This document shows, piece by piece, positions 3,321 through 39,580 of a stretch of 44,379 nucleotides of DNA. The stretch comes from a virus. The notes beneath the pieces were generated by a model. That model was not told the DNA's origin. It did no database searches and saw only the letters and a list, made by a program, of their open reading frames with translations. The stretch spans positions 1 to 44,379 of IMG/VR virus record IMGVR_UViG_3300045988_028516; one strand, written 5' to 3'. The stretch's first letter is position 1, and each line of letters opens with the position of its first letter. Position numbers and translations under genes: made by a program.

Positions 3321-3914
3321 GTGCAGAATTCGTTGCAAAAACTATCGCCGTACATAGACGATTTTCAGTGCAGAATACGGCGAGAAAAGGACGCGAAGGG
3401 ATTTACCATCAATACACTGGCTGACGCGGCGGGCGTGCCCGTTACAGCCGTCGGGAGAATAAATGCAGGCACACAGACGGATGTAAAACTAGCCTACGCA
3501 GCGGCGCTCTGTGACGCTCTGGGGCTGTCCCTCGATAAACTAACAGGACTATCGACACCGACCGGAAACGAGCCGGAATTACTGGAAAAGGCGCATCGGC
3601 TCGAACTTGAGAACACAGAACTCGCCGGAGAAAACACACGCCTGCAAAGTGAAGTAGAACATCAAGCAGAAAAGGCCGCGTTGCTGCAAGCTCAGCTCAC
3701 AACACGTCGGCCTGTTATTTATACACTTTTATGCTCATGCGCGGTCATGGCGTTCGCGCTTCTGGTTTATATCATCCTCGACATTCGTGTTCCAGACGTC
3801 GGGCTGATCGTGCATGGCGACGTCAGCACGGCGGCGTGGATCGTTATCGGCATGATCGTAGCGGCGAGCGGAATCATCGCATGGTCTTTAGTCAAAACAA
3901 TTAGGAGGAGATAA
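3321..3914 (+). CDS. Membrane-anchored XRE-type HTH protein (HTH, coiled coil, two TM helices)
   Basis: GTG 3321 lies 8 nt after GGAGG. The HTH is GFTINTLADAAGVPVTAVGRINAG. There is a heptad-like ELENTELAGENTRLQSEVE segment and two C-terminal hydrophobic helices. Confidence 0.7.
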   Translation: MQNSLQKLSPYIDDFQCRIRREKDAKGFTINTLADAAGVPVTAVGRINAGTQTDVKLAYAAALCDALGLSLDKLTGLSTPTGNEPELLEKAHRLELENTELAGENTRLQSEVEHQAEKAALLQAQLTTRRPVIYTLLCSCAVMAFALLVYIILDIRVPDVGLIVHGDVSTAAWIVIGMIVAASGIIAWSLVKTIRRR

Positions 3915-7792: not shown

Positions 7793-8488
7793 TTACTTCG
7801 TTTCCAGCACGGCGATATTGCCCTTGTTGCTGACCTTCAGGCCGAGCGCTGCGGCGATGTCGCGCACCTTGACATAGTTTGTGCCGTTTTTCAGGATGCG
7901 CTCCACGGCGACCTCCTTGCCGTCCACGATCATTCTCGACTTTTCAACCACTTCATCATCAATCCTTTCCTTGAATCTCGCCCACTGCACGTTGCCGGAC
8001 GTGTTGTAGTGGGTGTTAATATCGTCCCCGACAAATGGCCTCGGGCACATCTTGCCCGACACGTCGTAGTGACGGATGACGTGATCCGCCGGGATGTTGT
8101 ACTGCTTCATGAGCCGCCGGATGAGCCACACGGCGTTTTCAAGCGTCTGCTCGTCAAAGTACCAGTCCGTGTCATACGCGCCGAGACGCGCCTTGTTGAC
8201 CTTCCTCGGGCGTACCTCCACGCCGATGGAATTCCAGTTCCGGCATTCCGGGTGCTTCTGTCCGTCTCCGCAGTGCCACGCAATGTCGGACTCCTTCACG
8301 CAGCGGTATATGACGTTGCCCTCATCCACGGCATAGTGGGCGCTGGCTCTGGCCTGCGGATTTTTAAACCACTCGGCCACGCTTGCCGCCGTGCCGAGCG
8401 CGCCGAAATAATGCACCACGATGTATTTCGGGCGGCAGCCGCCCTTGCTGTGGTTGCAGCTCGTCAGAGCGTCCTTAATTACCGGCAT
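7793..8488 (-). CDS. Endolysin: N-acetylmuramoyl-L-alanine amidase (Amidase_2/PGRP type) with a C-terminal wall-binding domain
   Basis: YIVVHYFGALG...SAHYAVDEG...IAWHCG...IGVE is the amidase_2 pattern. An alternative start exists at 8521. Confidence 0.88.
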   Translation of the reverse strand: MPVIKDALTSCNHSKGGCRPKYIVVHYFGALGTAASVAEWFKNPQARASAHYAVDEGNVIYRCVKESDIAWHCGDGQKHPECRNWNSIGVEVRPRKVNKARLGAYDTDWYFDEQTLENAVWLIRRLMKQYNIPADHVIRHYDVSGKMCPRPFVGDDINTHYNTSGNVQWARFKERIDDEVVEKSRMIVDGKEVAVERILKNGTNYVKVRDIAAALGLKVSNKGNIAVLETK

Positions 8489-8699
8489 CTCCCGCGCCGC
8501 CTCCTTTCTCGTCCACCGCATCCTGAAGCTTCTGGCTCTGCGTTCCGAAGTAGAACGCGATGATGACTGCGTAGATGGTCATGAAGTCCTGCGAGATCTT
8601 GCCAACGACCGCCATGTAGGCGAACACGCCCGTCAGCACCAGCGTCACCAGCGACTTCACGCTCAGCAGATTCCCCAGCCGTTTCTTGATATTATCCAT
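8475..8699 (-). CDS. Holin (two TM helices)
   Basis: ATG 8699 lies 7 nt after GGAGGG. 74 aa with two hydrophobic helices and a charged C-terminus, immediately upstream of the endolysin. Confidence 0.75.
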   Translation of the reverse strand: MDNIKKRLGNLLSVKSLVTLVLTGVFAYMAVVGKISQDFMTIYAVIIAFYFGTQSQKLQDAVDEKGGGAGDAGN

Positions 8700-8958
8700 C
8701 GTATGTCCCTCCATCTTCTTTGTCGTTCGGTTTTGCAAATACACGTTTTACAAGCAGGAGCAGCAGCTCCCCGCCGAAGGCCGCGCCCGCGAACACCAGC
8801 ACGTCCGAAAGGTCGCACGTCCGGTCGAGCAGCAGCGCCGCCGTCTTGACGACCATCGCCCACGCGAGCGCCGCCGTCAGCGCCCAGAGGCAGTAGTACA
8901 CCAGCTCCCGCGCCATCTTGCCCTTGGTCACGCGCGACTTCTTCACGATCTTCGGCAT
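8692..8958 (-). CDS. Holin-like / XhlB-like membrane protein
   Basis: 88 aa with two hydrophobic helices, lying between the XhlA-like gene and the holin. Confidence 0.6.
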   Translation of the reverse strand: MPKIVKKSRVTKGKMARELVYYCLWALTAALAWAMVVKTAALLLDRTCDLSDVLVFAGAAFGGELLLLLVKRVFAKPNDKEDGGTYDG

Positions 8959-8959
8959 T

Positions 8960-9259
8960 TCATCCACCCACCCCCAGCTTTGCCAGTGCAAAGCCGATCA
9001 GCCCCGCGATGAGCGCGGCAATGACGCCCTTCACGACCGCCTCCCAGCGGCTCCCCGGCAGCGCCTTGAGGCTTTTCACATCGGCCTTGATCTCGTTCAC
9101 GTTTTCCTCGATCGTCTCCTGCTTGGTGGCCAGAACCTCCACCGAGGTCGCCAGCTGATGCAGCGCCTTGTTGTCTGCCTCCAGCTCGTCGATCCTGTGC
9201 GAGTTGCTCTTGCATCGCGCCTCCACGGAGGCGATCTGCGCCTGAATCCCGTCTTCCAT
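8960..9259 (-). CDS. xhlA: XhlA-family lysis protein (coiled coil plus C-terminal TM helix)
   Basis: ATG 9259 lies 6 nt after AAAGGAG. A coiled coil is followed by VIAALIAGLIGFALAKL. The gene order resembles PBSX xhlA-xhlB-xlyA. Confidence 0.65.
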   Translation of the reverse strand: MEDGIQAQIASVEARCKSNSHRIDELEADNKALHQLATSVEVLATKQETIEENVNEIKADVKSLKALPGSRWEAVVKGVIAALIAGLIGFALAKLGVGG

Positions 9260-9289
9260 CTTGTGCTCCTTTCTCGCGGGCATTGCCCG

Positions 9290-11191
9290 TCATGTGATTT
9301 CTTCGTCCAGTGTTACGATCAGATCCGCGCCCTTGCCCTTGGCAGACACACGGAAATACTTCGCCCCCTGCGGCGGCGCAACATTCTCGTCCGTAGAAAA
9401 TGCCCCAGCGGCGTTCGGGTCCTCCACCTTGGTCGGGAAATAGATGCTGTTCCCGAGCTGATTGTAGCCAAGTACGTTTCCCTTCAGTGAAAAGTCTGCA
9501 TTGTACCACGCCAGCCTTGCGCCATATTCGTTCCATGCAATGCCGTCACCGCCGATGCGATAAATATGAACCGCGCCGCCGTCAAATGGGATAAAGCCGG
9601 TGGTCGTGAAGTGGCTGCTTGCCGACAATGCGCCGCTGGAGCTGAGCATCTGCCCATCCGTATACGGCGCAGAGGCCCCGCTCGTGTCCACAGCGATCGG
9701 GACAAGGTTATGATACGACACCACCTTTGTAGCCTTTGCCGTAATGACCACGTCGCCCGTGACCTTCGCGATGCGGATGACACCGGAGCTTTCCGTGTAG
9801 GCGGAGGCCGTGATGTCCACGCCGCCCATCGTGACCGAGACCGTCTCCATCGTGTAGCCGCTCACCGCCGAAAGCGCCGCCGTATATTCCGTGCCGTCCT
9901 CGGCAGCGACTGCGTCATTGCTCGTCGTCACATGCGTCAGCGTGTTCGTGATGCTGTGATAGACCGTTGCCGCGTACCCGATGGTTCTGTCCGTTCCTGC
10001 GCCGTAGCAGAACGAATAGATCACCTGCTCAGACGGATTGATGACGTTGATATTAAAGGCCGTGTCCTTGCCCGTTCCGGCCGTCTTGTCGTAGGCCGCG
10101 GGATCGCCGAATGAGATTCCGTACATGGTGACGACGCCGGAGTTGTTTCTGTAAAAACAGGCGTTCGGCGTGCACATCCGCCATGCGTCAAACTGTGTGC
10201 CTTTTCCGTTTTCCACGCTGTGGAGCTTTCCGAACTGGAAGCAGTGATTGTGCCCGTGGACATTTGCGACGAACTTCGCCGCGTTTTTCCCCTGAAAATT
10301 GATCCGTTCTCCTCCGACAACGGCTACTTCTCCATTCACATACGCCTTGACGATGTTTCCCGCGGGATACGCGCCGCCCAGATCGAGCGGATAGTGTGCC
10401 AGCACGAGGATGCCCCACTTGGCGGCATCGGCCTTGCCTCCCACATCGCTCAGCGTCTCCGCAAACCACATCAGCTGCGCACCGGAGAAGATTTTCGGAG
10501 CACTTGCGCCTCCCGTCGTCTCGCCCTCGCATGCGTTCAGACAGATCACGCGCAGCTTTCTGTCCGGAAAGTCCCGATAGCAGTAGCCGTATTCCGCGCT
10601 TCCGTAGACCGCGCCCTCGTTGTATTTCCCGATGTTGTTTTTCAGGAATGCCGCGCCGACAAGCGTGCTGTACTCTCCGGTGTCGTGGTTTCCGACCGTT
10701 CGGAACTGCGGCACATCGCGCCATGCCTCACCGAGCCAGCCGTTGATCTCGTCAAACTGTGCCTGCATCAGTTCGGTCGTGGTCTTTGCGTTTCCGAACG
10801 TCACATCGCCGAGCATACACGCAAAATCGAGCCTCGGCAGACTGTACGCCAGCACCTTGAGCGCCATGCAGGCGTGCAGATTTCCGGCGTTGATGTTCGT
10901 CTGCCAGCCGTCTGTCTGCGGCCCGGCGTGGTGAAAGTCGGAGACCGCCGCAAATACGATGCTGTCGTCTTTCAAGACACGCCTGACCTTCTCCGCCACC
11001 GAAAGCGCCTCATCCTTCACATAGTCCGGAATCTCCGCGTGCTGTATGCTTTCTTTTGCCGAAATCGCATCCACCGCATCTCCGAAGCCCTTTGCGTCGT
11101 CCCAAGTGAGCTTTGCCGCCGAGCCGGTTTTTGCGCGAATCCGGTCTGCCGTGTGGGTCAGCGCCGCACCGTTTGTCAGATATTCACTCAA
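9290..11191 (-). CDS. Tail-associated protein with an N-terminal calcineurin-like metallophosphoesterase domain
   Basis: Motifs VSDFHH, GDVTFGN, GNHD, VLAHYP and HGHNH, followed by beta-rich C-terminal domains. It is the last structural gene before the lysis cassette. Confidence 0.75.
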   Translation of the reverse strand: MSEYLTNGAALTHTADRIRAKTGSAAKLTWDDAKGFGDAVDAISAKESIQHAEIPDYVKDEALSVAEKVRRVLKDDSIVFAAVSDFHHAGPQTDGWQTNINAGNLHACMALKVLAYSLPRLDFACMLGDVTFGNAKTTTELMQAQFDEINGWLGEAWRDVPQFRTVGNHDTGEYSTLVGAAFLKNNIGKYNEGAVYGSAEYGYCYRDFPDRKLRVICLNACEGETTGGASAPKIFSGAQLMWFAETLSDVGGKADAAKWGILVLAHYPLDLGGAYPAGNIVKAYVNGEVAVVGGERINFQGKNAAKFVANVHGHNHCFQFGKLHSVENGKGTQFDAWRMCTPNACFYRNNSGVVTMYGISFGDPAAYDKTAGTGKDTAFNINVINPSEQVIYSFCYGAGTDRTIGYAATVYHSITNTLTHVTTSNDAVAAEDGTEYTAALSAVSGYTMETVSVTMGGVDITASAYTESSGVIRIAKVTGDVVITAKATKVVSYHNLVPIAVDTSGASAPYTDGQMLSSSGALSASSHFTTTGFIPFDGGAVHIYRIGGDGIAWNEYGARLAWYNADFSLKGNVLGYNQLGNSIYFPTKVEDPNAAGAFSTDENVAPPQGAKYFRVSAKGKGADLIVTLDEEIT

Positions 11192-12255
11192 AACGACGCA
11201 CCTCCCGCCGAAGGAACGGCCTCCGCCGTCCAGACTCCGTTCACGACCCGCAGGAACTTTCCGTTGTCCGCCGCCGTCACCGCAGGCGTCCCCGGCTCTC
11301 CTTTCGGGCCTCGTTCTCCGGCAGGGCCCTGTTCACCGCGCGGCCCCTGCACACCGGGGTCGCCCTTGTCGCCCTTCGGGCCTTGCGGGCCTCTCTCGCC
11401 CTGCGGGCCGGTCTCGCCCGGAATGCCCTGCGGTCCCTGAATGCCCTGTGGGCCTCGCTCGCCCTGCGGGCCAGTGTCGCCTTTCGCTCCGTCAGCACCC
11501 TTTTCGCCCGGAACACCCTGCGGGCCAGTGTCGCCCTTCAAGCCCTGTTCGCCTTGAGGCCCCGTTTCTCCGCGAGGGCCTTGTGGGCCTGTATCTCCCT
11601 TGGGGCCAGCGGGGCCTTGTGCGCCGTCAGCACCCTTCTCGCCGGGAATGCCCTGCGGGCCTGCTTCGCCCTTTGGGCCAGCTTCTCCCTTAAGCTCGCT
11701 CACGGCAATCAGGTTTTCCCACGTAACGCCGTCGTTAGAATACTGGATGTACCCGCCGGATACCCGCATATCAATCGTGCCGCCGCCGGAGCCGCCGCCC
11801 GTGCGCGCTGCCTCGTTGATCGCGGCAACAAGATTCTCCTTCGCTTTGGTGGTCAGCTTCGACAGGTCGCCGATTTGCGTCTGAATCGCCTCGAACCATG
11901 CCTTGCTCGGCGCGTCGGGCGCTTCCTCACCAGCCTCAAGCGCTTTCACAACAAAGAAGTCAAACTTATCGGATTTCGCAAGGGTATTCCCGACAAGCCA
12001 CTGTAATTCACACTGCCCGAAGCCTGCTTTCTCCGTATCTGCGCGTGTGACAGCCCAGTACGCCGTGTCAGCCTCGATTGTAAGCGGAACGGGATACGCG
12101 GCGGCGTCACCCTTTCGACGCGCCAGAAGCGCAGGACCGCCGTCAGGGAAGGTCTCTTTGAACGGGAGCAGAGAAAAGGCTACGCGAACAGCCTCGTTTT
12201 CTCCCGTGTGCCCCAGCTTGATAGGTGCACGATGTGTTGCTTTCATTTCAATCAT
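11188..12255 (-). CDS. Collagen-like (GXY repeat) tail fibre / baseplate upper protein-like
   Basis: About 45 uninterrupted Gly-X-Y triplets (GEAGPKGEAGPQGIPGEKG...). The N-terminus resembles the BppU N-domain. Confidence 0.8.
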   Translation of the reverse strand: MIEMKATHRAPIKLGHTGENEAVRVAFSLLPFKETFPDGGPALLARRKGDAAAYPVPLTIEADTAYWAVTRADTEKAGFGQCELQWLVGNTLAKSDKFDFFVVKALEAGEEAPDAPSKAWFEAIQTQIGDLSKLTTKAKENLVAAINEAARTGGGSGGGTIDMRVSGGYIQYSNDGVTWENLIAVSELKGEAGPKGEAGPQGIPGEKGADGAQGPAGPKGDTGPQGPRGETGPQGEQGLKGDTGPQGVPGEKGADGAKGDTGPQGERGPQGIQGPQGIPGETGPQGERGPQGPKGDKGDPGVQGPRGEQGPAGERGPKGEPGTPAVTAADNGKFLRVVNGVWTAEAVPSAGGASF

Positions 12256-24862: not shown

Positions 24863-24939
24863 TGGTGGGCCGTCTCGGAGTCGAACCGAGATATTACCGT
24901 TTATGAGACGGTCGCTCTAGCCATTTGAGATAACGGCCC
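24863..24939 (-). tRNA. tRNA-Met/Ile2 (anticodon CAT), CCA encoded
   Basis: Acceptor GGGCCGT/ACGGCCC, anticodon arm ACCGT-CTCATAA-ACGGT, T arm CTCGG-TTCGACT-CCGAG, then ACCA. Confidence 0.88.
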
Positions 24940-25194: not shown

Positions 25195-25270
25195 TGGCGG
25201 GGCATGAAGGATTTGAACCTCCGACCGTCGGATTAACAGTCCGATGCTCTTCCAACTGAGCTAATACCCC
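25195..25270 (-). tRNA. tRNA-Asn (anticodon GTT), CCA encoded
   Basis: GGGGTAT-TA-GCTC-AGTTGGAA-GAGC-A-TCGGA-CTGTTAA-TCCGA-CGGTC-GGAGG-TTCAAAT-CCTTC-ATGCCCC-G-CCA. Confidence 0.9.
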
Positions 25271-25453: not shown

Positions 25454-27097
25454 TTAGAACACGCGCTTCTTGATCTCTATCTGAGCGGAGCCGTGATAGA
25501 GTTCGTCGGCTAACATTGCTAGGCTGTCCGGCGCGTCGTCGTGCGTATTCTTTCCCGTTTGGGAGAAGGTACACACTTCGCGCATAAACTCGTCGTATTC
25601 CGGCGTTCGATGCTCCTTATCCACGAAATAGAATCGCTTGATCTCCGGAGAATACTGAATTATACGGCCTAGCTTGCTTTGATTGTTCGGCGCTCTCTGA
25701 GAAGTGATATTCGTTCTCACGCCGATTGCCCGGAGCATCCTGTCTACAGTGGAAGCATATTCACCGCCGCCGTTATTCGCCTCGAAGCGTTCTTTATGGG
25801 GCTTGTGCTCCTTCGTGCGATTGACGATCATCGGCTGTGTAACATCTTTCGTTCCCTTGCTGAAGATTACGTCGTGTATATACACACTCCCGTCCGATGC
25901 GATATACGCAAACGGCATTGCGAGGCTGTCACCGCCGCCCCACGCAACGTCACACACAGAGACCTTATAGAAATCACCGTCTGGAAGAACGCCGTTATAA
26001 TAGCGTAGAGACTCCGCAGGGAACAAAAGACCTTCTCTGACATACGGCTTGCCTTGATACTTCGCACACCACGTCGCATCGTCTATACTCGCCTTCATGT
26101 CCTTGTAATACTCCGTAGAGAATCCAAGGCCGTATTGATAGTTAAAGTTCGACTCACCCTTTTCGTTAAGGGCAGGAATTACCCGGAAACGATACCTCGG
26201 ATTTCCGGAATACTGTTCCTCTATCCGTCCGAGCGGGTCTGCTACGTTCCACCTTGTACCTACCATCAGCTCGAAAGCTCCGTCCTTCTTTCTGTCCTTA
26301 AGCTGATTGAGATACGCGTCGTATTTCGCCTGCAATCTAACAGGGTTCAAAGACTCCTCCAAGTCCTCGATCAAGTCGTCTACATACAGACAGCCGCCTG
26401 TGCCGACTTCGACCGCGCCCGTTAGCGTTCCTCCAACCGAACGCGCCGTAAACGTCGGAAACCGCTTCTTCCTTTCAAGGTCTATCGTCTCGTTCTTTGC
26501 AGAATTGTCTACGACCTTTACGCCTGGAAACACGTCCGACCAAAGATACGTTTCCGTGTCCGTCAGAATGTTCATTGCCTCTCTGTAAAAGCCGTCTGTC
26601 AGCTTATCCGAATGGCCTGACATGACATTTGCAACTGAAGGCCGCTTCCCCATAATCCAAGTCATGAAGAATATGCAAAGCGTCGATTTCCCGACTCTTG
26701 GAGGCAGAGACACGCCCAAGAAGTCTAACTTCCCGTCGTTCAAATCCTGCAAGTCTTGTACAAGAGGTCTAAGTGTAGCCCGCCTAGGAACATAGAAGCG
26801 CTTCTCCTTCTCCCTGTTCCACTCCAAGTACACACAGTACGAATCGAAATCGTCCTTTGCTGCCAGCAAATACGTCTTTTTGTTTATTTCGTAAAATTTT
26901 AATACCGCCTCCGAGCTTCCCGAATACCTTACCTGCAATGCCGTCGCATTCCTCAGCCAAAGGTTATGCTCGAACGCCTTTTCCTTATCTTCCTCCCACA
27001 TCGCCCTGACAACATCGAAATAGTCTCCGTATGCTGTGCTATCCTCGGGGTGCAGCTCTATATGACGCTTTATCCTTCTTAACGTCTCTTCGTACAT
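25454..27097 (-). CDS. terL: Terminase large subunit
   Basis: ATG 27097 follows GGAGGAG. Walker A-like PPRVGKST, a Walker B-like LYVDDLIED segment, and a C-terminal nuclease-like region. Confidence 0.88.
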   Translation of the reverse strand: MYEETLRRIKRHIELHPEDSTAYGDYFDVVRAMWEEDKEKAFEHNLWLRNATALQVRYSGSSEAVLKFYEINKKTYLLAAKDDFDSYCVYLEWNREKEKRFYVPRRATLRPLVQDLQDLNDGKLDFLGVSLPPRVGKSTLCIFFMTWIMGKRPSVANVMSGHSDKLTDGFYREAMNILTDTETYLWSDVFPGVKVVDNSAKNETIDLERKKRFPTFTARSVGGTLTGAVEVGTGGCLYVDDLIEDLEESLNPVRLQAKYDAYLNQLKDRKKDGAFELMVGTRWNVADPLGRIEEQYSGNPRYRFRVIPALNEKGESNFNYQYGLGFSTEYYKDMKASIDDATWCAKYQGKPYVREGLLFPAESLRYYNGVLPDGDFYKVSVCDVAWGGGDSLAMPFAYIASDGSVYIHDVIFSKGTKDVTQPMIVNRTKEHKPHKERFEANNGGGEYASTVDRMLRAIGVRTNITSQRAPNNQSKLGRIIQYSPEIKRFYFVDKEHRTPEYDEFMREVCTFSQTGKNTHDDAPDSLAMLADELYHGSAQIEIKKRVF

Positions 27098-27108
27098 GCC
27101 TCTCCTCC

Positions 27109-27139
27109 AAAACAAAAAGAGCCGACGCAAAGCGTCAGC
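27109..27139 (-). terminator. Strong intrinsic terminator immediately upstream of the terL ribosome-binding site
   Basis: On the minus strand: GCTGACGC-TTT-GCGTCGGC, then TCTTTTTGTTTT, running directly into GGAGGAG and the ATG. Confidence 0.65.
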
Positions 27140-27406: not shown

Positions 27407-27988
27407 TTATTCGTTCGCGCCCTCTGGCGGTACATCCGCATCCGGCAGGGCGTCGCGGTATTTGTCCGCAATTGCATCAGGACTAGCCCCATCATCTAGT
27501 GGATTATGCGGAGAAAGTACTACATCTTGTGTATCTTTGTACCCGAACATATTTTTGCCAATAAATATACCAGATGCAGGGTTGATCTTGCCGGACTGCA
27601 TCCAATCATTCCACAGCATCTCTAGCACAGACATTGCCTTTTTTATCACTGGGCGGTGTGTATCCTCTCTGTAATCGCCTCTCCGCCATCTTGCAACTGT
27701 TGATGCGTCTACGCCTAGCCATAGCCCCATTCCCGGCACGCTTGGCTTTGCATCCTCCTGGATGCAGAATGCAAAATACTCTTGTATGCGGTACTCAACC
27801 TGCCTTGCATCGCTTATGTCGATCGGCGGGAGATCCCATGCAACCATAGCATTGCGCAGATATCGGGCATTGTCTCCCGGCTCGATGTGCTCTTGTCCAA
27901 AGTTGGCAAGATCGGGCCTGTTGCGCTTGCGCTTGGGCTTTGCGATCTCGGCGGGCTTGTCGGTTGCCGCCAGCTTGTCGGGTGCCAT
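27407..27988 (-). CDS. terS: Terminase small subunit (Terminase_2-like)
   Basis: Basic N-terminus, HTH-like PGMGLWLGVDASTVARWRRG, and ASGIFIGKNMFGYKD, which is typical of TerS. Confidence 0.8.
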   Translation of the reverse strand: MAPDKLAATDKPAEIAKPKRKRNRPDLANFGQEHIEPGDNARYLRNAMVAWDLPPIDISDARQVEYRIQEYFAFCIQEDAKPSVPGMGLWLGVDASTVARWRRGDYREDTHRPVIKKAMSVLEMLWNDWMQSGKINPASGIFIGKNMFGYKDTQDVVLSPHNPLDDGASPDAIADKYRDALPDADVPPEGANE

Positions 27989-28357: not shown

Positions 28358-28403
28358 CGAAAAGAAGAACACCGGCCGCCGTTAATCGGTAGCCGGTGTT
28401 TTG
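28358..28403. terminator. Bidirectional terminator after the RHH gene
   Basis: AACACCGGC, 15-nt loop, GCCGGTGTT, flanked by an A-run and TTTT. Confidence 0.55.
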
Positions 28404-28576
28404 CTTAGCCGCTCTCGGATTGCATTTTTGATATACTCGTTAACTCGCTCGCCCCGCGCATCGGCGGCGGCTTTGAGCTGCTCATATTCCGCAATTTGCA
28501 TATCGAGCGGCACGCGCTTAATGTGCGCCGCGCGATACTTTGCGGCGGCGTTTTTGCTTGCCTCGCTGTATGCCAT
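28382..28576 (-). CDS. Ribbon-helix-helix (Arc/CopG-like) regulator
   Basis: ATG 28576 lies 7 nt after GGAGG. 64 aa: KRVPLDMQIAEYEQLKAAADARGERVNEYIKNAIRERL. Confidence 0.7.
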   Translation of the reverse strand: MAYSEASKNAAAKYRAAHIKRVPLDMQIAEYEQLKAAADARGERVNEYIKNAIRERLSKTPATD

Positions 28577-28596
28577 CGGATCGCCTCCCCGCTGTG

Positions 28597-28630
28597 ATTG
28601 TACCACATCCGCATCGCATGTGTACACATA
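28597..28630 (-). promoter_or_regulatory. Putative promoter of the RHH gene (extended -10, TGgTACAAT)
   Basis: On the minus strand, TGGTACAAT. The 12-bp palindrome ATGTGTACACAT overlaps the -35 position. Confidence 0.45.
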
Positions 28631-28707
28631 CAATTTGCACAAAATGTGTACGTATATTTTGTATATGTTTTTGCTGATTTACTCTTGCAATATATGTGTA
28701 CGTATAC
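28618..28707. promoter_or_regulatory. Three operator-like sites, ATGTGTAC(AC/GT)AT
   Basis: 28618..28629 is a perfect palindrome, ATGTGTACACAT. 28644..28657 is ATGTGTACGTATAT. 28694..28707 is ATGTGTACGTATAC. Confidence 0.6.
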
Positions 28708-28713
28708 TATAAT
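28685..28713 (+). promoter_or_regulatory. Near-consensus promoter of the plus-strand five-gene operon
   Basis: TTGCAA, 17 nt, TATAAT. Operator copy 3 fills the spacer. Confidence 0.65.
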
Positions 28714-28780
28714 AAGCATGTAAACAAGAGATACCAAGCGCCCCGCAGATCACGCGGGCACAATTTTAGGAGGAAACGAC

Positions 28781-29008
28781 ATGCAGACTCTCCCCATTAA
28801 CATCTCCCCGACTTGCTCTAGCATCTGGCACACCCCCGAAGAAATCCGCGCCGCTTCCGTCGGTGGCTTGCGCATCGACTACAAAGCGGGGCGAGATTAC
28901 ATCATCCACTGCCGCAAGGCGGCAAGCGTCAGCGGCTGGGGTACTGCCGTCACCGACTCCGGCGCGATCTTGCAAGCATGGGCGGGTGAATTCTCAGTTG
29001 CTTGCTGA
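28781..29008 (+). CDS. Hypothetical protein (operon gene 1)
   Basis: 75 aa; AGGAGG 7 nt before the ATG. Confidence 0.6.
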   Translation: MQTLPINISPTCSSIWHTPEEIRAASVGGLRIDYKAGRDYIIHCRKAASVSGWGTAVTDSGAILQAWAGEFSVAC

Positions 29009-29075
29009 ATCTTGGCTTCTGGGCGGTTGAGCCGATCAGCCGCACCACATAATCTTAAATCAGGAGGAACTACAC

Positions 29076-29813
29076 ATGAACGCATATAATTACACGATCA
29101 AGGACATCGAAAGCATGAGCGAAGCCAATCTGGCCGACATGGCCGATGAAGTCGAGACGATCAAAGGGCACACGGTTTATTTCGTTGACTTCGGCGGCGC
29201 TTTCGGGTTTTCCGCTTGCGTCTGCGCAGAAGGGAAGCACATCTACCACGCGAATGATTACGAACTGCACCACAGAGGCAAGAGCCGCGACGAACTGCGC
29301 GAGATTTACCGCCGGAAGTTAACCGGAATACTTTTCACAGAATCGGAACTTTCCACCGTCAGCGGATACGAGGACAAGAGTGTAAAAGAATACTTTCTGC
29401 GCAACCTTTACGCAATGCGTCGCCCGCATGTTTCAATGTTTCATATCGGACCCGCGCCGGATACCTCCGGAATGATTTTTAGTCCAGTGTTCATGGCATA
29501 TTATCGGGATGCCGATTTCGTGCAGCACGGCGCGGAGCTTCTGCGGGCGTTGAATGAGGCAGAACGCAAGAGCGCCGAATCATTCGACTACTGGAAAAGC
29601 GCGTTTCTGCACGAAATGTATAATCACGAATACGGCATCAACTGGCAGGCTGATTATGACGTATGCAGTTGCTTCGCTAATTGCAGCGGCGTAAAAGACT
29701 ACACCAGCGCAAGCGAGCTTTTCGCCACCTGCGGATTTACCGACACGCAAAAAGCCGCATACATGGCCGCACAGCGCGAATATTTCAAGACGCAGGCAGA
29801 AACGGAGGAATAA
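29076..29813 (+). CDS. Hypothetical protein (operon gene 2)
   Basis: 245 aa; SD AGGAGG. Contains the motif YFVDFGGAFGFSACVCAEGKHIYHANDYELHH. Confidence 0.7.
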   Translation: MNAYNYTIKDIESMSEANLADMADEVETIKGHTVYFVDFGGAFGFSACVCAEGKHIYHANDYELHHRGKSRDELREIYRRKLTGILFTESELSTVSGYEDKSVKEYFLRNLYAMRRPHVSMFHIGPAPDTSGMIFSPVFMAYYRDADFVQHGAELLRALNEAERKSAESFDYWKSAFLHEMYNHEYGINWQADYDVCSCFANCSGVKDYTSASELFATCGFTDTQKAAYMAAQREYFKTQAETEE

Positions 29814-29816
29814 ACA

Positions 29817-30470
29817 ATGAAAATCATTAACAGCTGTGAAGAATTCCGCATCTTCGACTTTTGGGACCAGTGCGATGACCTTTATTTTTCTGATTCGCTC
29901 ATTTTTGCCCGTCCGTACCGCTATAGCCTCGTTATTATCGACCTGGCTAACGCGATGAAGAACGGCAAGACCTGCACGCGCTGGCTTTTCTCGGTCAGCC
30001 CGTGGCACATGGACACATCCAAGCTTAGCTTCACTGCGTATATCATGATGGCCGCGCCGGAGTGCGACACCCTCGCGGAGCTTGTCGCATGGCTTCGCGC
30101 CGGGAAGCCCTTGCAGGAGGTGGACGGCCTGACGGTTTCCGTTGGCGGGCAGCCGGGCAACCGCACATTTTCCCCGTTCGCACCGATTAAGCCCGTGAAG
30201 CTGGGCGACCGCCTGACCGCCGCAACGATTGCAAAGGCCATTCGCGCCGGGCAGATCGTCGCAGGCCGAACCGATGGCAGATACACGGATGATTACGCAT
30301 TCGACGCCGCTACAAACTTCGGGCGCGGAGAAATCGACGTGCAGGCGTTCGCGAAAGACATCTACGAGGACCCGTGCGGCTGGCGCTTCTGGTGGCACGA
30401 CGACACCCGGCGCGAGATCGTTGCAGCGTGCCACACGTTTGATTACAAAACGCTTGCGGTGGCGGTCTAA
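29817..30470 (+). CDS. Hypothetical protein (operon gene 3)
   Basis: 217 aa; starts 4 nt after the upstream stop; SD GGAGGA. Confidence 0.7.
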   Translation: MKIINSCEEFRIFDFWDQCDDLYFSDSLIFARPYRYSLVIIDLANAMKNGKTCTRWLFSVSPWHMDTSKLSFTAYIMMAAPECDTLAELVAWLRAGKPLQEVDGLTVSVGGQPGNRTFSPFAPIKPVKLGDRLTAATIAKAIRAGQIVAGRTDGRYTDDYAFDAATNFGRGEIDVQAFAKDIYEDPCGWRFWWHDDTRREIVAACHTFDYKTLAVAV

Positions 30471-30499
30471 CCGCCCCGCACGGGATGGAGGGTAAAGCA

Positions 30500-30775
30500 A
30501 TGGCATATTTATACATCGCCGTACAGGTACGGCAAGACCGCAACGAACGGGTATTTACGCCGCGCCCGTCTCCGGAGTACGACCCCGGCTATTATGCCGA
30601 TGTTATCCGCTGTGCCGAGTCCGACAACCTCGCGAGCGTTCTCGATCACATCGGCGGGCTTGTTTCTGCGAACATCTTCCCGACGAAAAAGCGGGCGCGA
30701 GAGGTCGCGGACTATTGGAACAGGCGTTTCATGGAGAATGGAACTTATTTCTTCGATGGAGGTAAAACAGCATGA
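30500..30775 (+). CDS. Hypothetical protein (operon gene 4)
   Basis: ATG 30500 lies 7 nt after GGAGGG; 91 aa. Confidence 0.6.
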   Translation: MAYLYIAVQVRQDRNERVFTPRPSPEYDPGYYADVIRCAESDNLASVLDHIGGLVSANIFPTKKRAREVADYWNRRFMENGTYFFDGGKTA

Positions 30776-31503
30776 AAATTACAAGCATGGGCGGGCAGGT
30801 TCCCGCCCTGTTCGCGGACATGTTGGAGCAGCCGCATCTTTTGATTGCTGGCGCGTCCGGCTCCGGTAAATCCGTTCTGCTCAATGGTCTGGTGTGCGCC
30901 ATTCTGCGACACCATCCGAACGAAAAGCAGATGATCCTGATCGACCCGAAGCGCACAGAGCTGAACGAATATGCAGGAATGCCGCACACGCTCCGGCACT
31001 CCACCGAGGGCGGCGAGATCATCGCGGCGCTTGATTATGCTCTGAGCATAACCGAGGCACGATATAAGCGGATGCAGCGTCGCAGGCTTCGCACGTTCTG
31101 CGGGCCGGACGTGTATATCATTATTGAGGAATTCGCCGACCTCATGACAACGATGAAAAAGCAAGCGCTTCCGGCCGTCCAGCGCCTTTGCCAGATCGGG
31201 CGCGCGGCAAAAGTGCATGTGATACTGGTAACACAGTGCCCGCTTGCAACAATCATTCCAACAGCTGTAAAGGTAAACTTTACCGCCATTTGCGGCCTGC
31301 ACACCGCCACCCGGCAGCAGAGCAGAAACATACTAGATATGCCCGGCTTGGAGCTTCTGCCGCAATGCGGCCAGTGCATCTATCAAACGCCCGCCGGAGT
31401 TTGGCGGTACGATGTACCCTATACCGGATACGAGGAAATATCCGCGGTTACAACGTTTTACAAAAAGCAGCGTTCTTTTCTGCAAAGAGTCTTTGCGAGA
31501 TAA
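30772..31503 (+). CDS. FtsK/SpoIIIE-like P-loop ATPase (motor domain only)
   Basis: Walker A IAGASGSGKS, LIDPKRTEL, Walker B YIIIEEFADL, and VHVILVTQCP. There is no TM or gamma domain. Confidence 0.75.
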   Translation: MKITSMGGQVPALFADMLEQPHLLIAGASGSGKSVLLNGLVCAILRHHPNEKQMILIDPKRTELNEYAGMPHTLRHSTEGGEIIAALDYALSITEARYKRMQRRRLRTFCGPDVYIIIEEFADLMTTMKKQALPAVQRLCQIGRAAKVHVILVTQCPLATIIPTAVKVNFTAICGLHTATRQQSRNILDMPGLELLPQCGQCIYQTPAGVWRYDVPYTGYEEISAVTTFYKKQRSFLQRVFAR

Positions 31504-31508
31504 GCTAA

Positions 31509-31540
31509 CACCGCCCACATCGGGCGGGGTTCTTTTTCTG
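31509..31540 (+). terminator. Rho-independent terminator of the plus-strand operon
   Basis: CCGCCC-ACATC-GGGCGG, then GGTTCTTTTTCTG. Confidence 0.7.
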
Positions 31541-31555
31541 CGGTATCGCAAAAGT

Positions 31556-31744
31556 TTATTCCGTGTCTCCGGTATCTTCTCTTTCTTCTTTGTTCTTCCC
31601 GTTTTTCTGCAATGACGCTCGCAGAAACGCAGTTATCAGGATGTTCGCCTGTTCTTCTGTTGCGCCCGCGTTTATCGTGGCTTTGTAAAACAGCAGCGAC
31701 ATTTCTGCAAGCGCTCCAACGGCGTCAAAAAGTTCTCCCATCAT
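31556..31744 (-). CDS. Hypothetical small protein
   Basis: ATGA overlap with the upstream stop; 62 aa. Confidence 0.5.
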   Translation of the reverse strand: MMGELFDAVGALAEMSLLFYKATINAGATEEQANILITAFLRASLQKNGKNKEEREDTGDTE

Positions 31745-32241
31745 ATCTGTATCCCCTTTACAAATTTGTCGTAGTACGTCGTAGCTACCGCCATAGCCGC
31801 CCACATGTCAGAGGAAAAGCCGAAGAAAAAGCCCGGTTGTTTCTTTGTGCCTTTTCCGAAGTTCGGCTGTCCGGGCGCGTAGCGGTCGGCAAGCGCCTGC
31901 CTGATGTTCGCATCCTTCGCACGCGGAGACGCGCAAAGGCACAGCTTTTCTTCCCGTCGGTATATGTACTGCATTTCCCGGAAATCCCTTGTGAGCGCCC
32001 GCTCCCAAAAGCGGCCTATCCATACACAGGTATCAAAGACTTCCTTGCCAACGGTCATACCCATCCCCGCGATCATCTCGATCACAAAGTCAATTTTTTC
32101 GCTTTCTGCGATGATCTGCATGATCTCGTGGTTTTCCAGTTTCCCGACGCGGAGCACTCGCGTTATGTCGCGCTCGTCGTACTCTGCAATAACAAAACCG
32201 CTCTCGATGTTTCCGGGGTCAATCGCAAGTATTTTTCCCAT
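31741..32241 (-). CDS. RuvC-like Holliday junction resolvase
   Basis: The N-terminus KILAIDPGNIESGFVI is the RuvC-fold catalytic Asp motif. 166 aa. Confidence 0.65.
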   Translation of the reverse strand: MGKILAIDPGNIESGFVIAEYDERDITRVLRVGKLENHEIMQIIAESEKIDFVIEMIAGMGMTVGKEVFDTCVWIGRFWERALTRDFREMQYIYRREEKLCLCASPRAKDANIRQALADRYAPGQPNFGKGTKKQPGFFFGFSSDMWAAMAVATTYYDKFVKGIQI

Positions 32242-32996: not shown

Positions 32997-33761
32997 TTAC
33001 TCCACCTCGTTCTTTCTGCTCGAGTAAAAGAGTTTGCTGTACGCCTCATAGCGTTCGTCGATATGCGTCGTGGCAACCATATCTGCCGTTCTATTCGTTG
33101 GTTTCCGAATCGGTTTTGTAACGACACATTCTGGTTTCCAGCCTCGTTTAATCCTTCTTTTAATTGTAGCGTATGGGATTCCCGTCTTATCTGCCCACTG
33201 GGACATAGTCAACGTTTCCCCAAATGCTTCAATATAGTGGTTTCTTCTGGTATTGTTGCATTGCGTCTTATGGTCAACCCATCTGCAATTATCTGGCGTA
33301 TAATCACCATCGTTATCGATTCTGTCGATAGACAATTCAGGAGAATACCCCGCGCCAAGTGCCCATTTTTTGAACGCGCAGTAATCATTTCTCCATTTAT
33401 CATCCATCTTGATTCCTCGCGCCCCATACCATTTGTAATGATATTCCGTTTCGCAGTAACACCTTGCGCGCATTCCACTCCAAATGTTATGAAGGCGTTT
33501 ATGACTGTCTCCATGTATCGTTGCATTTTTCCTTCTGTATTCGTTGTTCTTGCACCCGCAGCTCTTACGTTTTTTCTTTTTTATCTCCTGCGTGGATAAG
33601 TAACGTATGTTTCCGCATGAGCACAAGCACTTCCACCGTCTTACCTTATGGCCGTCATTCCTGATTTTGGGTTCACCTTCTTCTAGTACTTTGAACTCAC
33701 CGAAGGAGTATCCTGTTAAATCAATTTTTGGTTCTTTGGAGCCACTGATTATACTTTCCAT
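32997..33761 (-). CDS. HNH_3/AP2-type homing-endonuclease-like protein
   Basis: SIDRIDNDGDYTPDNCRWVDHKTQCNNTR, plus an N-terminal CLCSCG zinc motif. ATG 33761 follows GGGAGAG. Confidence 0.7.
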   Translation of the reverse strand: MESIISGSKEPKIDLTGYSFGEFKVLEEGEPKIRNDGHKVRRWKCLCSCGNIRYLSTQEIKKKKRKSCGCKNNEYRRKNATIHGDSHKRLHNIWSGMRARCYCETEYHYKWYGARGIKMDDKWRNDYCAFKKWALGAGYSPELSIDRIDNDGDYTPDNCRWVDHKTQCNNTRRNHYIEAFGETLTMSQWADKTGIPYATIKRRIKRGWKPECVVTKPIRKPTNRTADMVATTHIDERYEAYSKLFYSSRKNEVE

Positions 33762-34314
33762 AACGTCTCTCCCATGAAACAAGTTCATCCTTCGTCATGT
33801 CCCTAGAGAACCAATCCCAGAATCCGCACGGATTCATTTCTGAGCAAAATCCTCGATAGACACAGTTACACACCAGCACATCCGCAATTTCCGGCTCAAT
33901 CTCATGCAAGGCCGCCTTGAAGTCCTCGGCGTACTGCCGCGTCTCAGGCGAGGACTGGTGGCACAAACGCTTTCGCATCGTATCAATCAATGCCTGTACA
34001 TTTGCGTCTCCTGTGAAGTCAACAGGCGCGTCCTGCGGCAGATTGTCACGGTCAATCCCCGTGCGGTCTGAGCGCTGTGTCTTTACAAAACACTCCCATT
34101 TGTGCCGCGTCCAGTGCGTTGCTACCCAGCTCTTGATTCCGCGCCATGTCCACCTCACGCAAATGTCCCGAATCGGGCTGTGCTCTGCGATCAGGATTTT
34201 TCTCTTAAAGTCTGCGCTCGGCTCTTTACCAAGCGGCGGCTTGCCAACGGTCAGGCGGCAGTCAGAAGCGACTTCCTCCCAATCGCCCTTGATTTTAAGA
34301 ATCTCCGTTTTCAT
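33721..34314 (-). CDS. Divergent ThyX-like (flavin-dependent thymidylate synthase fold) protein
   Basis: EHSPIRD...[26 protein letters not shown] parallels the ThyX pattern HSP...G.SR....Q..RHR..S....SQR, but with substitutions. ATG 34314 lies 6 nt after AGGAGG. Confidence 0.45.
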
Positions 34315-38253: not shown

Positions 38254-38532
38254 TCATCCTTTCTGCATCGTTTTCGCGTATTCCAGCAGCGCGTTCCTCT
38301 CGGCTTCTGCCTCCGCCTGCTTTCTCTGTGCGAGGGCAATCACCATGTCCTTCCACTCGATTTCCTTGCGCAGCTCTGCGTTCTCGGCGGTCAGGCGCTC
38401 GATCATAGTGATAGATTCATCCGCCAGACGCTCCGTGCAACGCACATACTTCATTTGTGGACAAAGCCCGCAACCCTTCTCTATATGCGTCGCGCAGATA
38501 CGCAGCGCCTGTATAATTTCCTTGTCTGTCAT
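38254..38532 (-). CDS. Hypothetical protein
   Basis: 92-aa ORF with a Cys cluster followed by a coiled coil. Confidence 0.5.
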   Translation of the reverse strand: MTDKEIIQALRICATHIEKGCGLCPQMKYVRCTERLADESITMIERLTAENAELRKEIEWKDMVIALAQRKQAEAEAERNALLEYAKTMQKG

Positions 38533-39398
38533 ATATCCTCCATTCCTTCAAAAACCATTTGTCCCGGCAAAACGCCGTCCTCCAGACTCCAGTGCAGGAC
38601 GTCTTCGCCGGTCTGCCAATCGCACGGCAGGCCGCGGCTGCGGCGCTCCTCGATCATCCGGTCATAAGCCCGGATGTAGGCATTCCGGTATCCGGGGTAG
38701 CGCGCGAGCTGCACCTTCCGGCGCTTGCCCGCCATCGGGCAATTGATGCAGCCCACGCGATCTTCGCCGCAGGCGTAAAGCGGATTCATACAGATCTTTT
38801 CTGCTGCGCAGTAATCCCAGATGGATTCGGTCGGCCAATCGATAATCGGATTGACCGTTCGGGTCCCCTTGAGCTGGCAATTTTCTATCAGCATCCGGCT
38901 TTCGTCATTGTCGTTCATCAGTGTCAGCCGCTTGGATTTATCCCTGTGCAGGGTCTCCATAACGCCACGGGATTTGCGCTTTTGCGATTCCTCCCAGCGG
39001 ACGCCGGTCGCGATCCACCTGCCACGTCCGCTGGTCTCTTTGAGCGCCGCGCAGCAGTAGCGCATAATGCGTGTCGGCGGCACCAGCTTCAGCGGGATTA
39101 GTCGCCACATGGTCATGTACGTCCCGTCCGGCTGCTTGTGCTTATCGATATCGCACGGTACGCCCGCCAGCTCCAGCCTTCGGAATGTTTCCCACACATG
39201 CCAGACGGTCTCCGGCGCATCAGCTGTCGTCAGCGAGTGCAGCACCTCATACGGGATGCCCGATTTCCCAGCCAGATGCAGAAGTACGTCCGAGTCCTTT
39301 CCGCCTGAGTAAGTAATCACAAGTGCTCGCTTATACAGGCGCATACTCATGTCCGATGCCATTTTAAGCCGCTCAATGGCTGTCTGCTCCAAATCCAT
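38529..39398 (-). CDS. PAPS reductase-family (PP-loop) protein
   Basis: PP-loop SGGKDS. ATG 39398 lies 5 nt after GGAGGGG. The C-terminus has a CINCPMAG Cys cluster. Confidence 0.78.
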   Translation of the reverse strand: MDLEQTAIERLKMASDMSMRLYKRALVITYSGGKDSDVLLHLAGKSGIPYEVLHSLTTADAPETVWHVWETFRRLELAGVPCDIDKHKQPDGTYMTMWRLIPLKLVPPTRIMRYCCAALKETSGRGRWIATGVRWEESQKRKSRGVMETLHRDKSKRLTLMNDNDESRMLIENCQLKGTRTVNPIIDWPTESIWDYCAAEKICMNPLYACGEDRVGCINCPMAGKRRKVQLARYPGYRNAYIRAYDRMIEERRSRGLPCDWQTGEDVLHWSLEDGVLPGQMVFEGMEDI

Positions 39399-39400
39399 GT

Positions 39401-39580
39401 TTACCCCTCCGTGTTGTACACGATCATCGCGGTGTACATCCGCTCTGCAACACCCATGCTCTTGATCGCGCAAGAGCTAAACTTGATGTCAACGACTCGA
39501 TACGGCGTCTTCTCAAGAAATTCGTTTACGCGAAGCTCGATTTCAAATGGCGTAACGCCCTGTAGAATTTTAACTTCCAT
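39401..39580 (-). CDS. Hypothetical small protein
   Basis: ATG 39580 lies 6 nt after AAGGAG; 59 aa beginning MEVKILQGVTPFEIELRVNEFL. Confidence 0.5.
   Translation of the reverse strand: MEVKILQGVTPFEIELRVNEFLEKTPYRVVDIKFSSCAIKSMGVAERMYTAMIVYNTEG

Follow-up and report, generated by a model that had tools for sequence, protein, structure and literature searches.

An opposite-strand gene cassette was analyzed in a virus genome, the IMG/VR record IMGVR_UViG_3300045988_028516 (positions 1 to 44,379; this whole stretch of 44,379 nucleotides is denoted as the window). The cassette consists of a gene for a small ribbon-helix-helix (RHH)-like regulator and, divergent from it, five open reading frames (ORFs; O1–O5), the last of which encodes a predicted 243-aa ATPase of the FtsK/SpoIIIE family (denoted as mini-FtsK). 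Our preferred, still tentative, explanation is that the cassette is an establishment or anti-defence operon of the moron type, which is gated by an Aca-like repressor and resides at a terminase-proximal hotspot common to a large clade of uncultured gut siphoviruses. This explanation draws on a regulator whose variants covary with the operators at the operon promoter, on an ATPase gene that keeps its place beside the terminase genes while the genes in front of it are exchanged, and on the kinds of genes found as cargo in relatives and next to the cargo families in other mobile elements.

An opposite-strand operon with a putative repressor of its own

The RHH gene occupies positions 28382–28576 on the minus strand and encodes 64 aa from an ATG at 28576 that follows GGGGAGG; its mechanical ORF is longer and reaches a TTG at 28642. 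On the plus strand lie O1 (28781–29008, 75 aa), O2 (29076–29813, 245 aa), O3 (29817–30470, 217 aa), O4 (30500–30775, 91 aa from the ATG preceded by a Shine–Dalgarno (SD) sequence, or 96 aa if read from 30485) and O5 (30772–31503, 243 aa), and an AGGAGG or GGAGG motif is present 6–9 nt upstream of every start. The spacings from O1 to O4 are 67, 3 and 29 nt, while O4 and O5 overlap by 4 nt (ATGA), through which O4 is predicted to be translationally coupled to O5. An independent gene caller returned the identical set of 64, 75, 245, 217, 91 and 243 aa in other metagenome assemblies, and the exact five-gene arrangement was found on six contigs from different samples. The flanking genes are all on the minus strand: TerS (P22 gp3-like; GP3_package; 27407–27988), TerL (25454–27130) and the portal gene on one side, and a Holliday-junction resolvase gene (31741–32241) and a gene for a helix-turn-helix (HTH) protein on the other. 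An integrase gene (3914–4936) and a repressor-like gene (3240–3914) mark the phage as temperate, as judged from gene content. A preliminary description, made from the sequence alone, had pointed to an RHH gene divergent from five SD-led ORFs between minus-strand flanks, and had proposed an insulated, separately promoted, repressor-controlled unit on a temperate phage; the analysis recovered the main features of this arrangement at the coordinates given.

The operon promoter is a sigma-70-type site, TTGCAA-17-TATAAT (28685–28713, plus strand), which agrees with the consensus at 10 of 12 positions. A predicted promoter-like site for the RHH gene, TGTACA-18-TACAAT with TG (28597–28626, minus strand), agrees at 9 of 12 and overlaps the first of three operator-like sites. 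These sites conform to the word ATGTGTAC(A/G)(C/T)ATA and start at 28618, 28644 and 28694, with no other site in the window. Copy 1 (ATGTGTACACATA, 28618–28630) has a palindromic core, copy 2 reads ATGTGTACGTATA (28644–28656), and copy 3 (28694–28706) lies inside the promoter spacer. The pattern search gave four matches, namely the three sites, one of which also matches on the opposite strand, against 0.02 expected by chance. Repeated and palindromic operator-like sequences at its own and the neighboring promoter, a hallmark of RHH repressors, are found here, as far as sequence patterns can indicate. The near-consensus promoter and the three palindromes had been noted in the preliminary description, and the latter proved to be confined to the RHH–O1 intergenic region.

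The RHH protein is present in all close relatives, as three sequence variants. In an alignment of the control regions of nine loci, the −35 (TTGAC) and −10 (TATAAT) elements are fixed; the operator in the spacer, together with the two copies upstream of it, differs according to the RHH variant, giving three operator words for three variants over the nine loci. Specifically, the window-type RHH pairs with the operator ATGTGTACGTATA, the 'MAVSEAQRRANQKW' type with a ATACGTTGTAAC-like operator, and the 'MPVSDAHKRASARW' type with a ATAACCGTTAACG-like operator. Since the operator word covaries with the RHH variant, the RHH protein is very probably the operon's own repressor, and this covariation is the strongest evidence at hand for the putative repression of the operon promoter by RHH.

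The assignment of the regulator itself as RHH-like is weak but coherent. Its product matches phrog_13890 (E = 6.5e-9) and the Arc-like repressor family phrog_582 (E = 0.0026). When the family profile was compared with the PDB, the top seven matches were all RHH proteins over the same residues, with E-values of 0.007–0.9, and included ParG (E = 0.0067), AvtR, Arc, omega, VapB26 and ParD. This body of evidence agrees with the Arc/CopG-like identity first suggested for the gene. The regulator slot is kept among relatives while the family in it is swapped: RHH fills it in the window lineage and an XRE-type HTH protein in a distant lineage, and six loci have a small serine recombinase there. In these six (L031, L090, L092, L095, L100 and L109; relative loci are numbered with the prefix L), the divergent gene encodes 207–270 aa with Resolvase and Recombinase domains. 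In L026–L112 (e.g., L026, 3339–8636), the TerL transcription unit seems to start with a small HTH regulator gene; the order is 72 aa, 82 aa and TerL, with gaps of 15 and 73 nt. The regulator may thus link the shutting-off of the cassette with the start of late transcription.

A leader, GCATGTAAACAAGAGATAC (28716–28734), follows the operon promoter and is succeeded by a small GC hairpin, the whole spanning 28716–28762 on the plus strand. The leader was aligned in the window and in L001, L002, L004, L006, L007, L013, L017 and L028. Its core, GTAAACAAGAG, is invariant and the remainder nearly so across loci with differing RHH and operator types, and the subsequent GC hairpin varies in sequence. 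The leader sequence is unique within the window, and an Rfam scan gave no family for it. It may be the site of a second regulator or an RNA element.

At the far end of the operon, a terminator-like hairpin (CCGCCCACATCGGGCGG, 31511–31527) with a T-run extends to 31540 on the plus strand, directly 3' of the O5 stop codon. At the RHH end, a GC-rich hairpin (CACCGGC...GCCGGTG, about 28370–28404) with T-rich tracts on both sides overlaps the RHH stop codon and probably acts as a bidirectional terminator, insulating the cassette against TerS. Terminators at both ends had been anticipated: the one after O5 was confirmed, while the RHH-end hairpin was read by eye, the terminator scanner having scored only a weaker inner form (28385–28397). 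Across the region, five terminator-like sites were found against 4.3 expected by chance, which is no excess.

The last gene encodes a predicted FtsK-type ATPase reduced to the beta domain

On sequence grounds, O5 is a member of the FtsK/SpoIIIE domain family without being an FtsK of the cellular type. It matches Pfam PF01580 (FtsK_SpoIIIE) with an E-value of 5.9e-29 and 101.5 bits (cut-off 24) and phrog_1358 with an E-value of 1.5e-46. The NCBIfam matches are FtsK (E = 7.9e-30), EccC (2.5e-16) and TraB (6.2e-5), and the score against the FtsK equivalog model NF007615 is 103 bits, far below its cut-off of 1566. Residues 13–211 align to residues 160–396 of the E. coli FtsK chain 2ius (512 residues), which corresponds to the RecA-like beta domain only. 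The first about 150 and the last about 100 residues of 2ius have no counterpart in O5, so that neither the alpha domain nor the gamma winged helix-turn-helix (wHTH) domain is present. Only 12 residues precede the aligned domain, without an N-terminal membrane anchor. No transmembrane (TM) segment was found in any cassette protein, and the only hydrophobic stretch of O5 is a strand of the RecA core. The initial view of the last gene as a stand-alone FtsK-type P-loop ATPase lacking TM and gamma domains is thus upheld and extends to the alpha domain. The nearest cellular sequences were obtained by a Walker-A-like pattern scan of genome contigs, which returned only full-length host FtsK genes; these FtsK/SpoIIIE proteins of 590–1248 aa are about 35% identical to O5 and carry 230–900 extra N-terminal and about 100 extra C-terminal residues.

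In 19 members of the O5 family, G30-S-G-K33-S34 (Walker A, GSGKS), E120/D123, R144 and Q155 are invariant, and the Walker B motif of O5 reads IIIEEFADL. Hallmarks of the HerA/FtsK clade are an arginine finger that sits just upstream of strand 4, together with a sensor-1 glutamine (PMC10853773), for which R144 and Q155, respectively, are the candidates in O5. Since the Walker A and B motifs, R144 and Q155 are invariant, O5 should be an active oligomeric ATPase. The FtsK motif TQRP appears as TQCP(L) in every O5-family member examined (O5 residues 154–158), the Cys being invariant. A reading of this change as a lost arginine finger was dropped, because the finger of the clade lies upstream of strand 4, where R144 is invariant. 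The last 20 residues of O5 are basic and aromatic, with a median net charge of +4 and a hydrophobic moment in the top few per cent of windows from the same protein; this C-terminal tail may tether the protein.

The cassette occupies a fixed site and exchanges its cargo

Probing with O5 retrieved 23 close IMG/VR loci and 73 that are more distant, and extra contexts were taken from metagenome assemblies. Genes of the relatives were called with a simple codon-usage caller, which reproduced the window genes and missed some short ones. Position was judged in 55 distinct loci with enough flanking sequence. The ATPase gene lies antisense beside the terminase genes in 53 of them; the cassette is located between TerS and TerL in 32 and just upstream of TerS in 20, the latter being the position in the window. 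TerS is convergent, 113–513 bp past the ATPase stop, in 30 of the 32 loci that split TerS from TerL, and TerL lies 1.7–5.7 kb upstream over the whole locus set. Mini-FtsK is kept at the same terminase-proximal site in hundreds of related phage contigs. Across most of the wider clade, an antisense cassette stands between TerS and TerL.

In the co-directional array of 0–8 genes, the ATPase gene comes last or nearly last. Across about 70 related viral contigs, the only recurring parts are the ATPase and a small divergent DNA-binding regulator. The cargo between them is extremely diverse: the 73 cassettes contain 74 families, whose median length is 114 aa and whose median pI is 5.65. The close relatives of the window carry O2 or O3 and never both, O4 is present or absent, and the array starts with O1, a 66-aa coiled-coil protein or a 113-aa Cys-rich protein. 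Even ATPases that are 96–98% identical are preceded by differing gene sets (A+O2, A+O3 or A+B). Near-identical ATPases behind different cargo indicate that the cargo recombines freely, with no compensating change in the ATPase. The idea that the five genes form one co-occurring system was consequently not borne out for O1–O4, an outcome that the preliminary description had itself named as speaking against it: O2 and O3 alternate and also occur without FtsK, and cassettes without the ATPase exist.

In a sample seeded with TerL, the ATPase was found in 17 of 17 relatives with a TerL identity of at least 84% and in 6 of 35 with a TerL identity of 59–76%. Conversely, ATPases that are 50–55% identical occur in phages whose TerL is only 32–34% identical and whose portal is 48–50% identical. 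In phage Maintenon (TerL 49%), the TerS–TerL gap holds tRNAs and small genes, and the ATPase is absent. ATPase-less relatives carry short antisense gene clusters at the same site, including GP88 and an O4-like gene (the latter in L221). Such clusters indicate that the site is an accessory hotspot, of which mini-FtsK is the commonest tenant and not a requirement. A Cys-rich cargo family (…GYCDL…Y.CG.YGWN.D.Y…) was seen both in the ATPase-less L221 (6134–6457) and, together with the ATPase, in L089 (2452–2862), a resemblance noted by eye. As judged from these sequences, the distribution is patchy relative to TerL, as for a moron. The other traits of morons and hotspot insertions were likewise found, namely a promoter and terminator of their own, an opposite orientation, and presence or absence among syntenic relatives. 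With the ATPase gene at a fixed place but antisense to the terminase genes and patchy relative to TerL, the cassette genes do not look like conserved core replication or packaging genes, the other outcome that would have spoken against the preliminary description.

Cargo of the window and of its relatives

O1–O4 have no significant match in Pfam, PHROGs, NCBIfam or PADLOC, and their sequence profiles gave no match among PDB sequences. Foldseek searches of the O2 and O3 models against the PDB likewise returned nothing significant, in line with the earlier impression that only the last gene is recognizable. Among about 25 close relatives, only L014 and L015 carry O1, and O4 is optional.

O2 is an acidic protein (pI 5.1) with 507 homologs, which form 334 representative clusters at 50% identity and are almost all stand-alone proteins of about 250 aa. 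Its AF2 model has a pLDDT of 90 and no fold match in the PDB (best Foldseek E = 2.1). The invariant polar motifs DFGG, HH, RR, E-M-x-N-H-E-Y and D-x-D-x-x-x-C suggest an enzyme, and on the basis of the predicted model O2 is likely an enzyme with a fold that is not in the PDB. In BFVD, Foldseek found only a direct homolog of 71% identity (A0A8S5V079), whose machine-given name, 'Queuosine biosynthesis protein', was distrusted since no family model supports the label. No match was obtained by tblastn of O2 against phages or against plasmids, or by blastn of the cassette against isolated phages. O2 homologs without FtsK lie near integrases or in long arrays, including ICE-like regions, and their neighbors comprise ANT/AntA, DpnD-PcfM, DUF4942, MT-A70, LPD18, LPD11 and GP88.

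O3 has 88 homologs, an AF2 model with a pLDDT of 92 and no significant PDB match. A clamp-like fold (PCNA/beta-clamp) was rejected, as the match was not significant (E = 0.16, TM 0.15, rmsd 15). Remote relatives of O3 (29–35% identity) are carried by plasmids of Bacillus, Clostridium and Vibrio, where small hypothetical genes surround them and ParB-like and SprT-like genes lie nearby. An apparent single family of O3 and the small first-position genes proved to be an artefact of over-extended ORFs under single-linkage clustering; the 66-aa coiled-coil and 113-aa Cys-rich proteins form families separate from O3. Judging from these gene neighborhoods, the O2 and O3 families travel in other phages, ICE-like regions and plasmids among genes of the counter-defence or establishment type.

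The cargo of the relatives was scanned with one representative per family. The first gene of an eight-gene array that ends in the ATPase (L100) matches ArdA (E = 1.2e-42) and the anti-restriction family phrog_2059 (E = 7.8e-33). LPD25 was found in L079 and GP88 in six loci, and DUF7678 is also among the cargo. ArdA is an inhibitor of restriction enzymes. Both LPD25 and ArdA are among the domains from which polyvalent counter-defence proteins are built in phages and conjugative elements, and solo LPD25 occurs in phages (PMC5512222). PADLOC detected no genuine defence family among the cargo representatives; its labels of one cargo protein as LmuB, JetC, PbeC and DndD were rejected as coiled-coil artefacts. 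Taken together, the domain matches and neighborhoods of the window and relative cargo point to a common pool from which mobile elements draw establishment and counter-defence genes.

Proposed mode of action and alternative explanations

Under the preferred explanation, host RNA polymerase would fire the operon as the DNA enters the cell, and the cargo proteins would counter host barriers or otherwise aid establishment. The RHH protein would build up and then shut the promoter, by the logic of Aca-controlled anti-CRISPR operons. Mini-FtsK, as a putative oligomeric and DNA-stimulated ATPase, would assemble on DNA, where its basic and aromatic tail may tether it; its most likely job would be to translocate or clear proteins from incoming or replicating phage DNA. 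Each of the four genes O1–O4 would be independent cargo and would not encode a subunit of an ATPase complex, since the free exchange of cargo and the ATPase-less cassettes argue against a multi-subunit system. The conflict-related module suspected at the outset gains support on its anti-defence side and loses the notion of one dedicated five-gene system. There is no support for the idea that the cassette enters the cell ahead of the remaining DNA, as a P22 gp3-like TerS implies headful packaging and permuted ends.

Several observations weigh against this explanation. The anti-defence label derives from three annotated families among the 74 of the cargo and from neighborhood resemblance, and no cargo gene of the window has an annotated or demonstrated anti-defence function or is a known Acr or characterized inhibitor. 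The Pfam RHH_7 score of the regulator is 13.9 bits, below the 27-bit cut-off, and Aca genes, unlike the divergent gene seen here, are usually found downstream within the operon itself. We know of no anti-defence island with a conserved FtsK-type ATPase, which makes the place of mini-FtsK in the scheme a conjecture; the ATPase gene could be no more than the most frequent cargo, or a conserved neighbor unrelated to it. Finally, the temperate lifestyle fits a prophage-expressed defence moron equally well. A bolder form of the preferred explanation, to which we assign a small chance, would make mini-FtsK the conserved engine of an unrecognized class of phage establishment islands. Here, an early, ring-forming, tail-tethered motor would pull in the incoming chromosome or clear it, so that restriction, SMC-type or other DNA-tracking defences are stripped off or outrun, and the upstream cargo, including O2 and O3, would be new anti-defence proteins. 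Such an establishment motor could be likened to the T5 pre-early genes and to the 'pull' step of phi29 p17.

A modest chance is given to the opposite role, a prophage-expressed defence or superinfection-exclusion moron in which mini-FtsK, tethered on DNA or at the membrane of the lysogen, intercepts or expels foreign DNA, as has been proposed for defence systems with captured HerA/FtsK domains, while the upstream genes act as sensors or effectors. The temperate phage and the insulated unit with its own sigma-70 promoter and repressor agree with it, as do the PADLOC matches of O5 to SspH (E = 2.8e-21) and mad8 (E = 6.2e-20). HerA/FtsK domains have been repeatedly captured by defence and anti-invader systems (PMC10853773), and this recurrent capture explains both matches, which cover only the ATPase domain; PADLOC found no Ssp, Dnd or MADS partner gene in the cassette. 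Moreover, cargo that is swapped in front of an unchanged ATPase, or that occurs without it, is unlike a sensor–effector system, and the ArdA gene of one such cassette would be detrimental to a lysogen under constitutive expression, which argues against such expression in lysogens. Somewhat less likely is a role for mini-FtsK as a quasi-core helper of phage DNA metabolism, which would move, untangle or pass on replicated phage DNA (concatemer processing, segregation or delivery to terminase) and merely shares a transcription unit with unrelated cargo. The fixed place beside TerS and TerL, the convergent TerS at a short distance and the portal-like conservation where TerL has diverged would all suit such a helper, as would the adjoining Holliday-junction resolvase in the window, the small serine recombinases that adjoin in six loci and the FtsK/SpoIIIE-like gene in the replication module of Bacillus phages. 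However, the gene is antisense to the packaging and replication genes and not co-transcribed with them, it is missing from Maintenon and from 29 of the 35 phages with a TerL identity of 59–76%, it has no gamma domain to talk to recombinases, and these phages already possess a complete TerS/TerL/portal machine.

The chance is slim that mini-FtsK manipulates the host cell cycle by mimicking or poisoning host FtsK/SpoIIIE, thereby delaying division or the translocation of chromosome or forespore DNA. O5 is closest to genuine cellular FtsK, with about 35% identity to the beta domain and the NCBIfam FtsK match given above, and is devoid of the alpha, gamma and membrane parts. For the FtsK/SpoIIIE genes of Bacillus gamma-like phages, an involvement in sporulation or in DNA translocation has been put forward as speculation (PMC4113786). 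Yet the catalytic residues of O5 are all invariant, which would be needless in a passive poison subunit, and 35% identity leaves co-assembly with a host ring uncertain. Hardly credible is a remnant of a mobilizable or conjugative element, with the RHH protein as a relaxosome accessory and O5 as an FtsK-like coupling protein or TraB-type pump. FtsK-like ATPases do serve in these capacities, LPD25 is typical of conjugative elements, and two RHH variants in relatives weakly match the NikA-like mobilization family (best E = 9.4e-5). Against this stand the fixed phage position in hundreds of phage contigs, the O5 scores (21.7 bits against a cut-off of 800 for TraB NF041214, with the VirB4 and TrwB models also below their cut-offs), and the tblastn search without a plasmid homolog of O2. 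Neither the Pfam scan of O1–O4 nor Foldseek of O2 and O3 against the PDB gave a relaxase-like match, and no TM segment or T4SS gene was found in the cassette.

Comparison with known systems

O5 shares with cellular FtsK/SpoIIIE (PDB 2ius/2iuu) the RecA-like beta domain, the Walker A and B motifs, the Arg ahead of strand 4 and the sensor-1 Gln. It differs in its length of 243 aa, in having a short basic and aromatic tail in place of the membrane anchor, linker, alpha and gamma domains, and in the invariable TQCP of its family where FtsK has TQRP. Since the gamma wHTH is missing, neither KOPS/SRS reading nor XerD activation is expected. Like O5, the FtsK/SpoIIIE-like proteins of other phages (phrog_1358/3551; Bacillus gamma-like phages, Jayan and the mycobacteriophage 'FtsK-like DNA translocase') are phage-encoded FtsK ATPases, which we found in 342 phage records at less than 60% identity. 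Such genes are known from Bacillus phages and mycobacteriophages, with no function established (PMC4113786 for the Bacillus gamma-like phages). In the one annotated example inspected, Bacillus phage Jayan, the FtsK-like protein has 437 aa and is encoded in the replication module, co-oriented with it and without a regulator-plus-cargo layout, whereas the present family has about 243 aa and is antisense and terminase-proximal. DndH/SspH and the MADS protein mad8 resemble O5 in placing an FtsK-clade ATPase domain in a conflict context; the likeness is limited to that domain, the other domains and partners are missing, and the setting is a phage element instead of a host island.

As systems for comparison at the level of the whole locus, acr-aca loci, the clustering of acr with ardA and klcA, and the islands of plasmid leading regions were considered, together with lambda-type morons and P2/P4 hotspots. 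Similar to acr-aca operons and anti-defence islands, the cassette combines a strong promoter, operators overlapping it and a small locus-encoded HTH or RHH repressor with hypervariable small, often acidic proteins, and a conserved anchor flanks the variable genes, with ArdA among the cargo of relatives. In contrast to them, the anchor is an ATPase and not a regulator, and the regulator is divergent and not the last gene. With morons and hotspots, the cassette has in common its own promoter and terminator, insertion between genes that are adjacent in relatives, a patchy distribution and variable content at a fixed site. However, P2/P4 hotspots hold mostly prophage-expressed defence, whereas the annotated cargo of this cassette class is of the counter-defence kind, and the present site splits TerS from TerL in most of the clade. 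Full-text searches of the literature on phage FtsK, ArdA and anti-defence and on terminase-linked accessory hotspots gave no description of the arrangement.

If the preferred explanation is true, a 243-aa FtsK-like gene would mark a fixed site for counter-defence and establishment genes in hundreds of uncultured gut phages. The ATPase could then serve as a guilt-by-association anchor, as aca genes do for anti-CRISPRs, giving access to the 74 mostly unannotated families in the 73 cassettes. O2, with its 334 clusters at 50% identity, and O3 are widespread, have confident predicted folds without a PDB match and contain many invariant polar residues, and are therefore candidates for structural and biochemical work. 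The question of why terminase-bearing tailed phages carry FtsK/SpoIIIE ATPases is posed here in minimal form, by a beta domain alone together with a clean regulatory switch. As a feature of genome architecture, an antisense accessory operon that splits TerS from TerL in most of a clade is of interest in its own right.

Other features of the phage genome

Two tRNA genes lie between the portal gene and TerL on the minus strand (24866–24939 and 25198–25270; Rfam tRNA, 56 and 72 bits). Maintenon has tRNAs too, in its TerS–TerL gap. The packaging module of this phage lineage tolerates insertions at several junctions.

In the late-early region, an HNH endonuclease gene (32997–33788, minus strand; phrog_374, E = 2e-63) is 40–78% identical to those of relatives, while its neighbors are 96–100% identical, which suggests a mobile, homing-type gene. 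The early region contains a PAPS-reductase-like gene (38529–39473, minus strand; phrog_424, E = 2.3e-35), and relatives encode dGTP diphosphohydrolase-like, dUTPase, Thy1-like and Lar restriction-alleviation genes. With these genes and the 'Queuosine biosynthesis protein' label of the O2 homolog, a theme of DNA modification or nucleotide pools is possible.

The G+C content rises to 0.58–0.64 over positions 8001–12000, compared with about 0.50–0.54 elsewhere in the window. This stretch spans two large minus-strand ORFs (9290–11191 and 11188–12255), probably a tail or host-recognition region, and the rise may reflect a mosaic origin.

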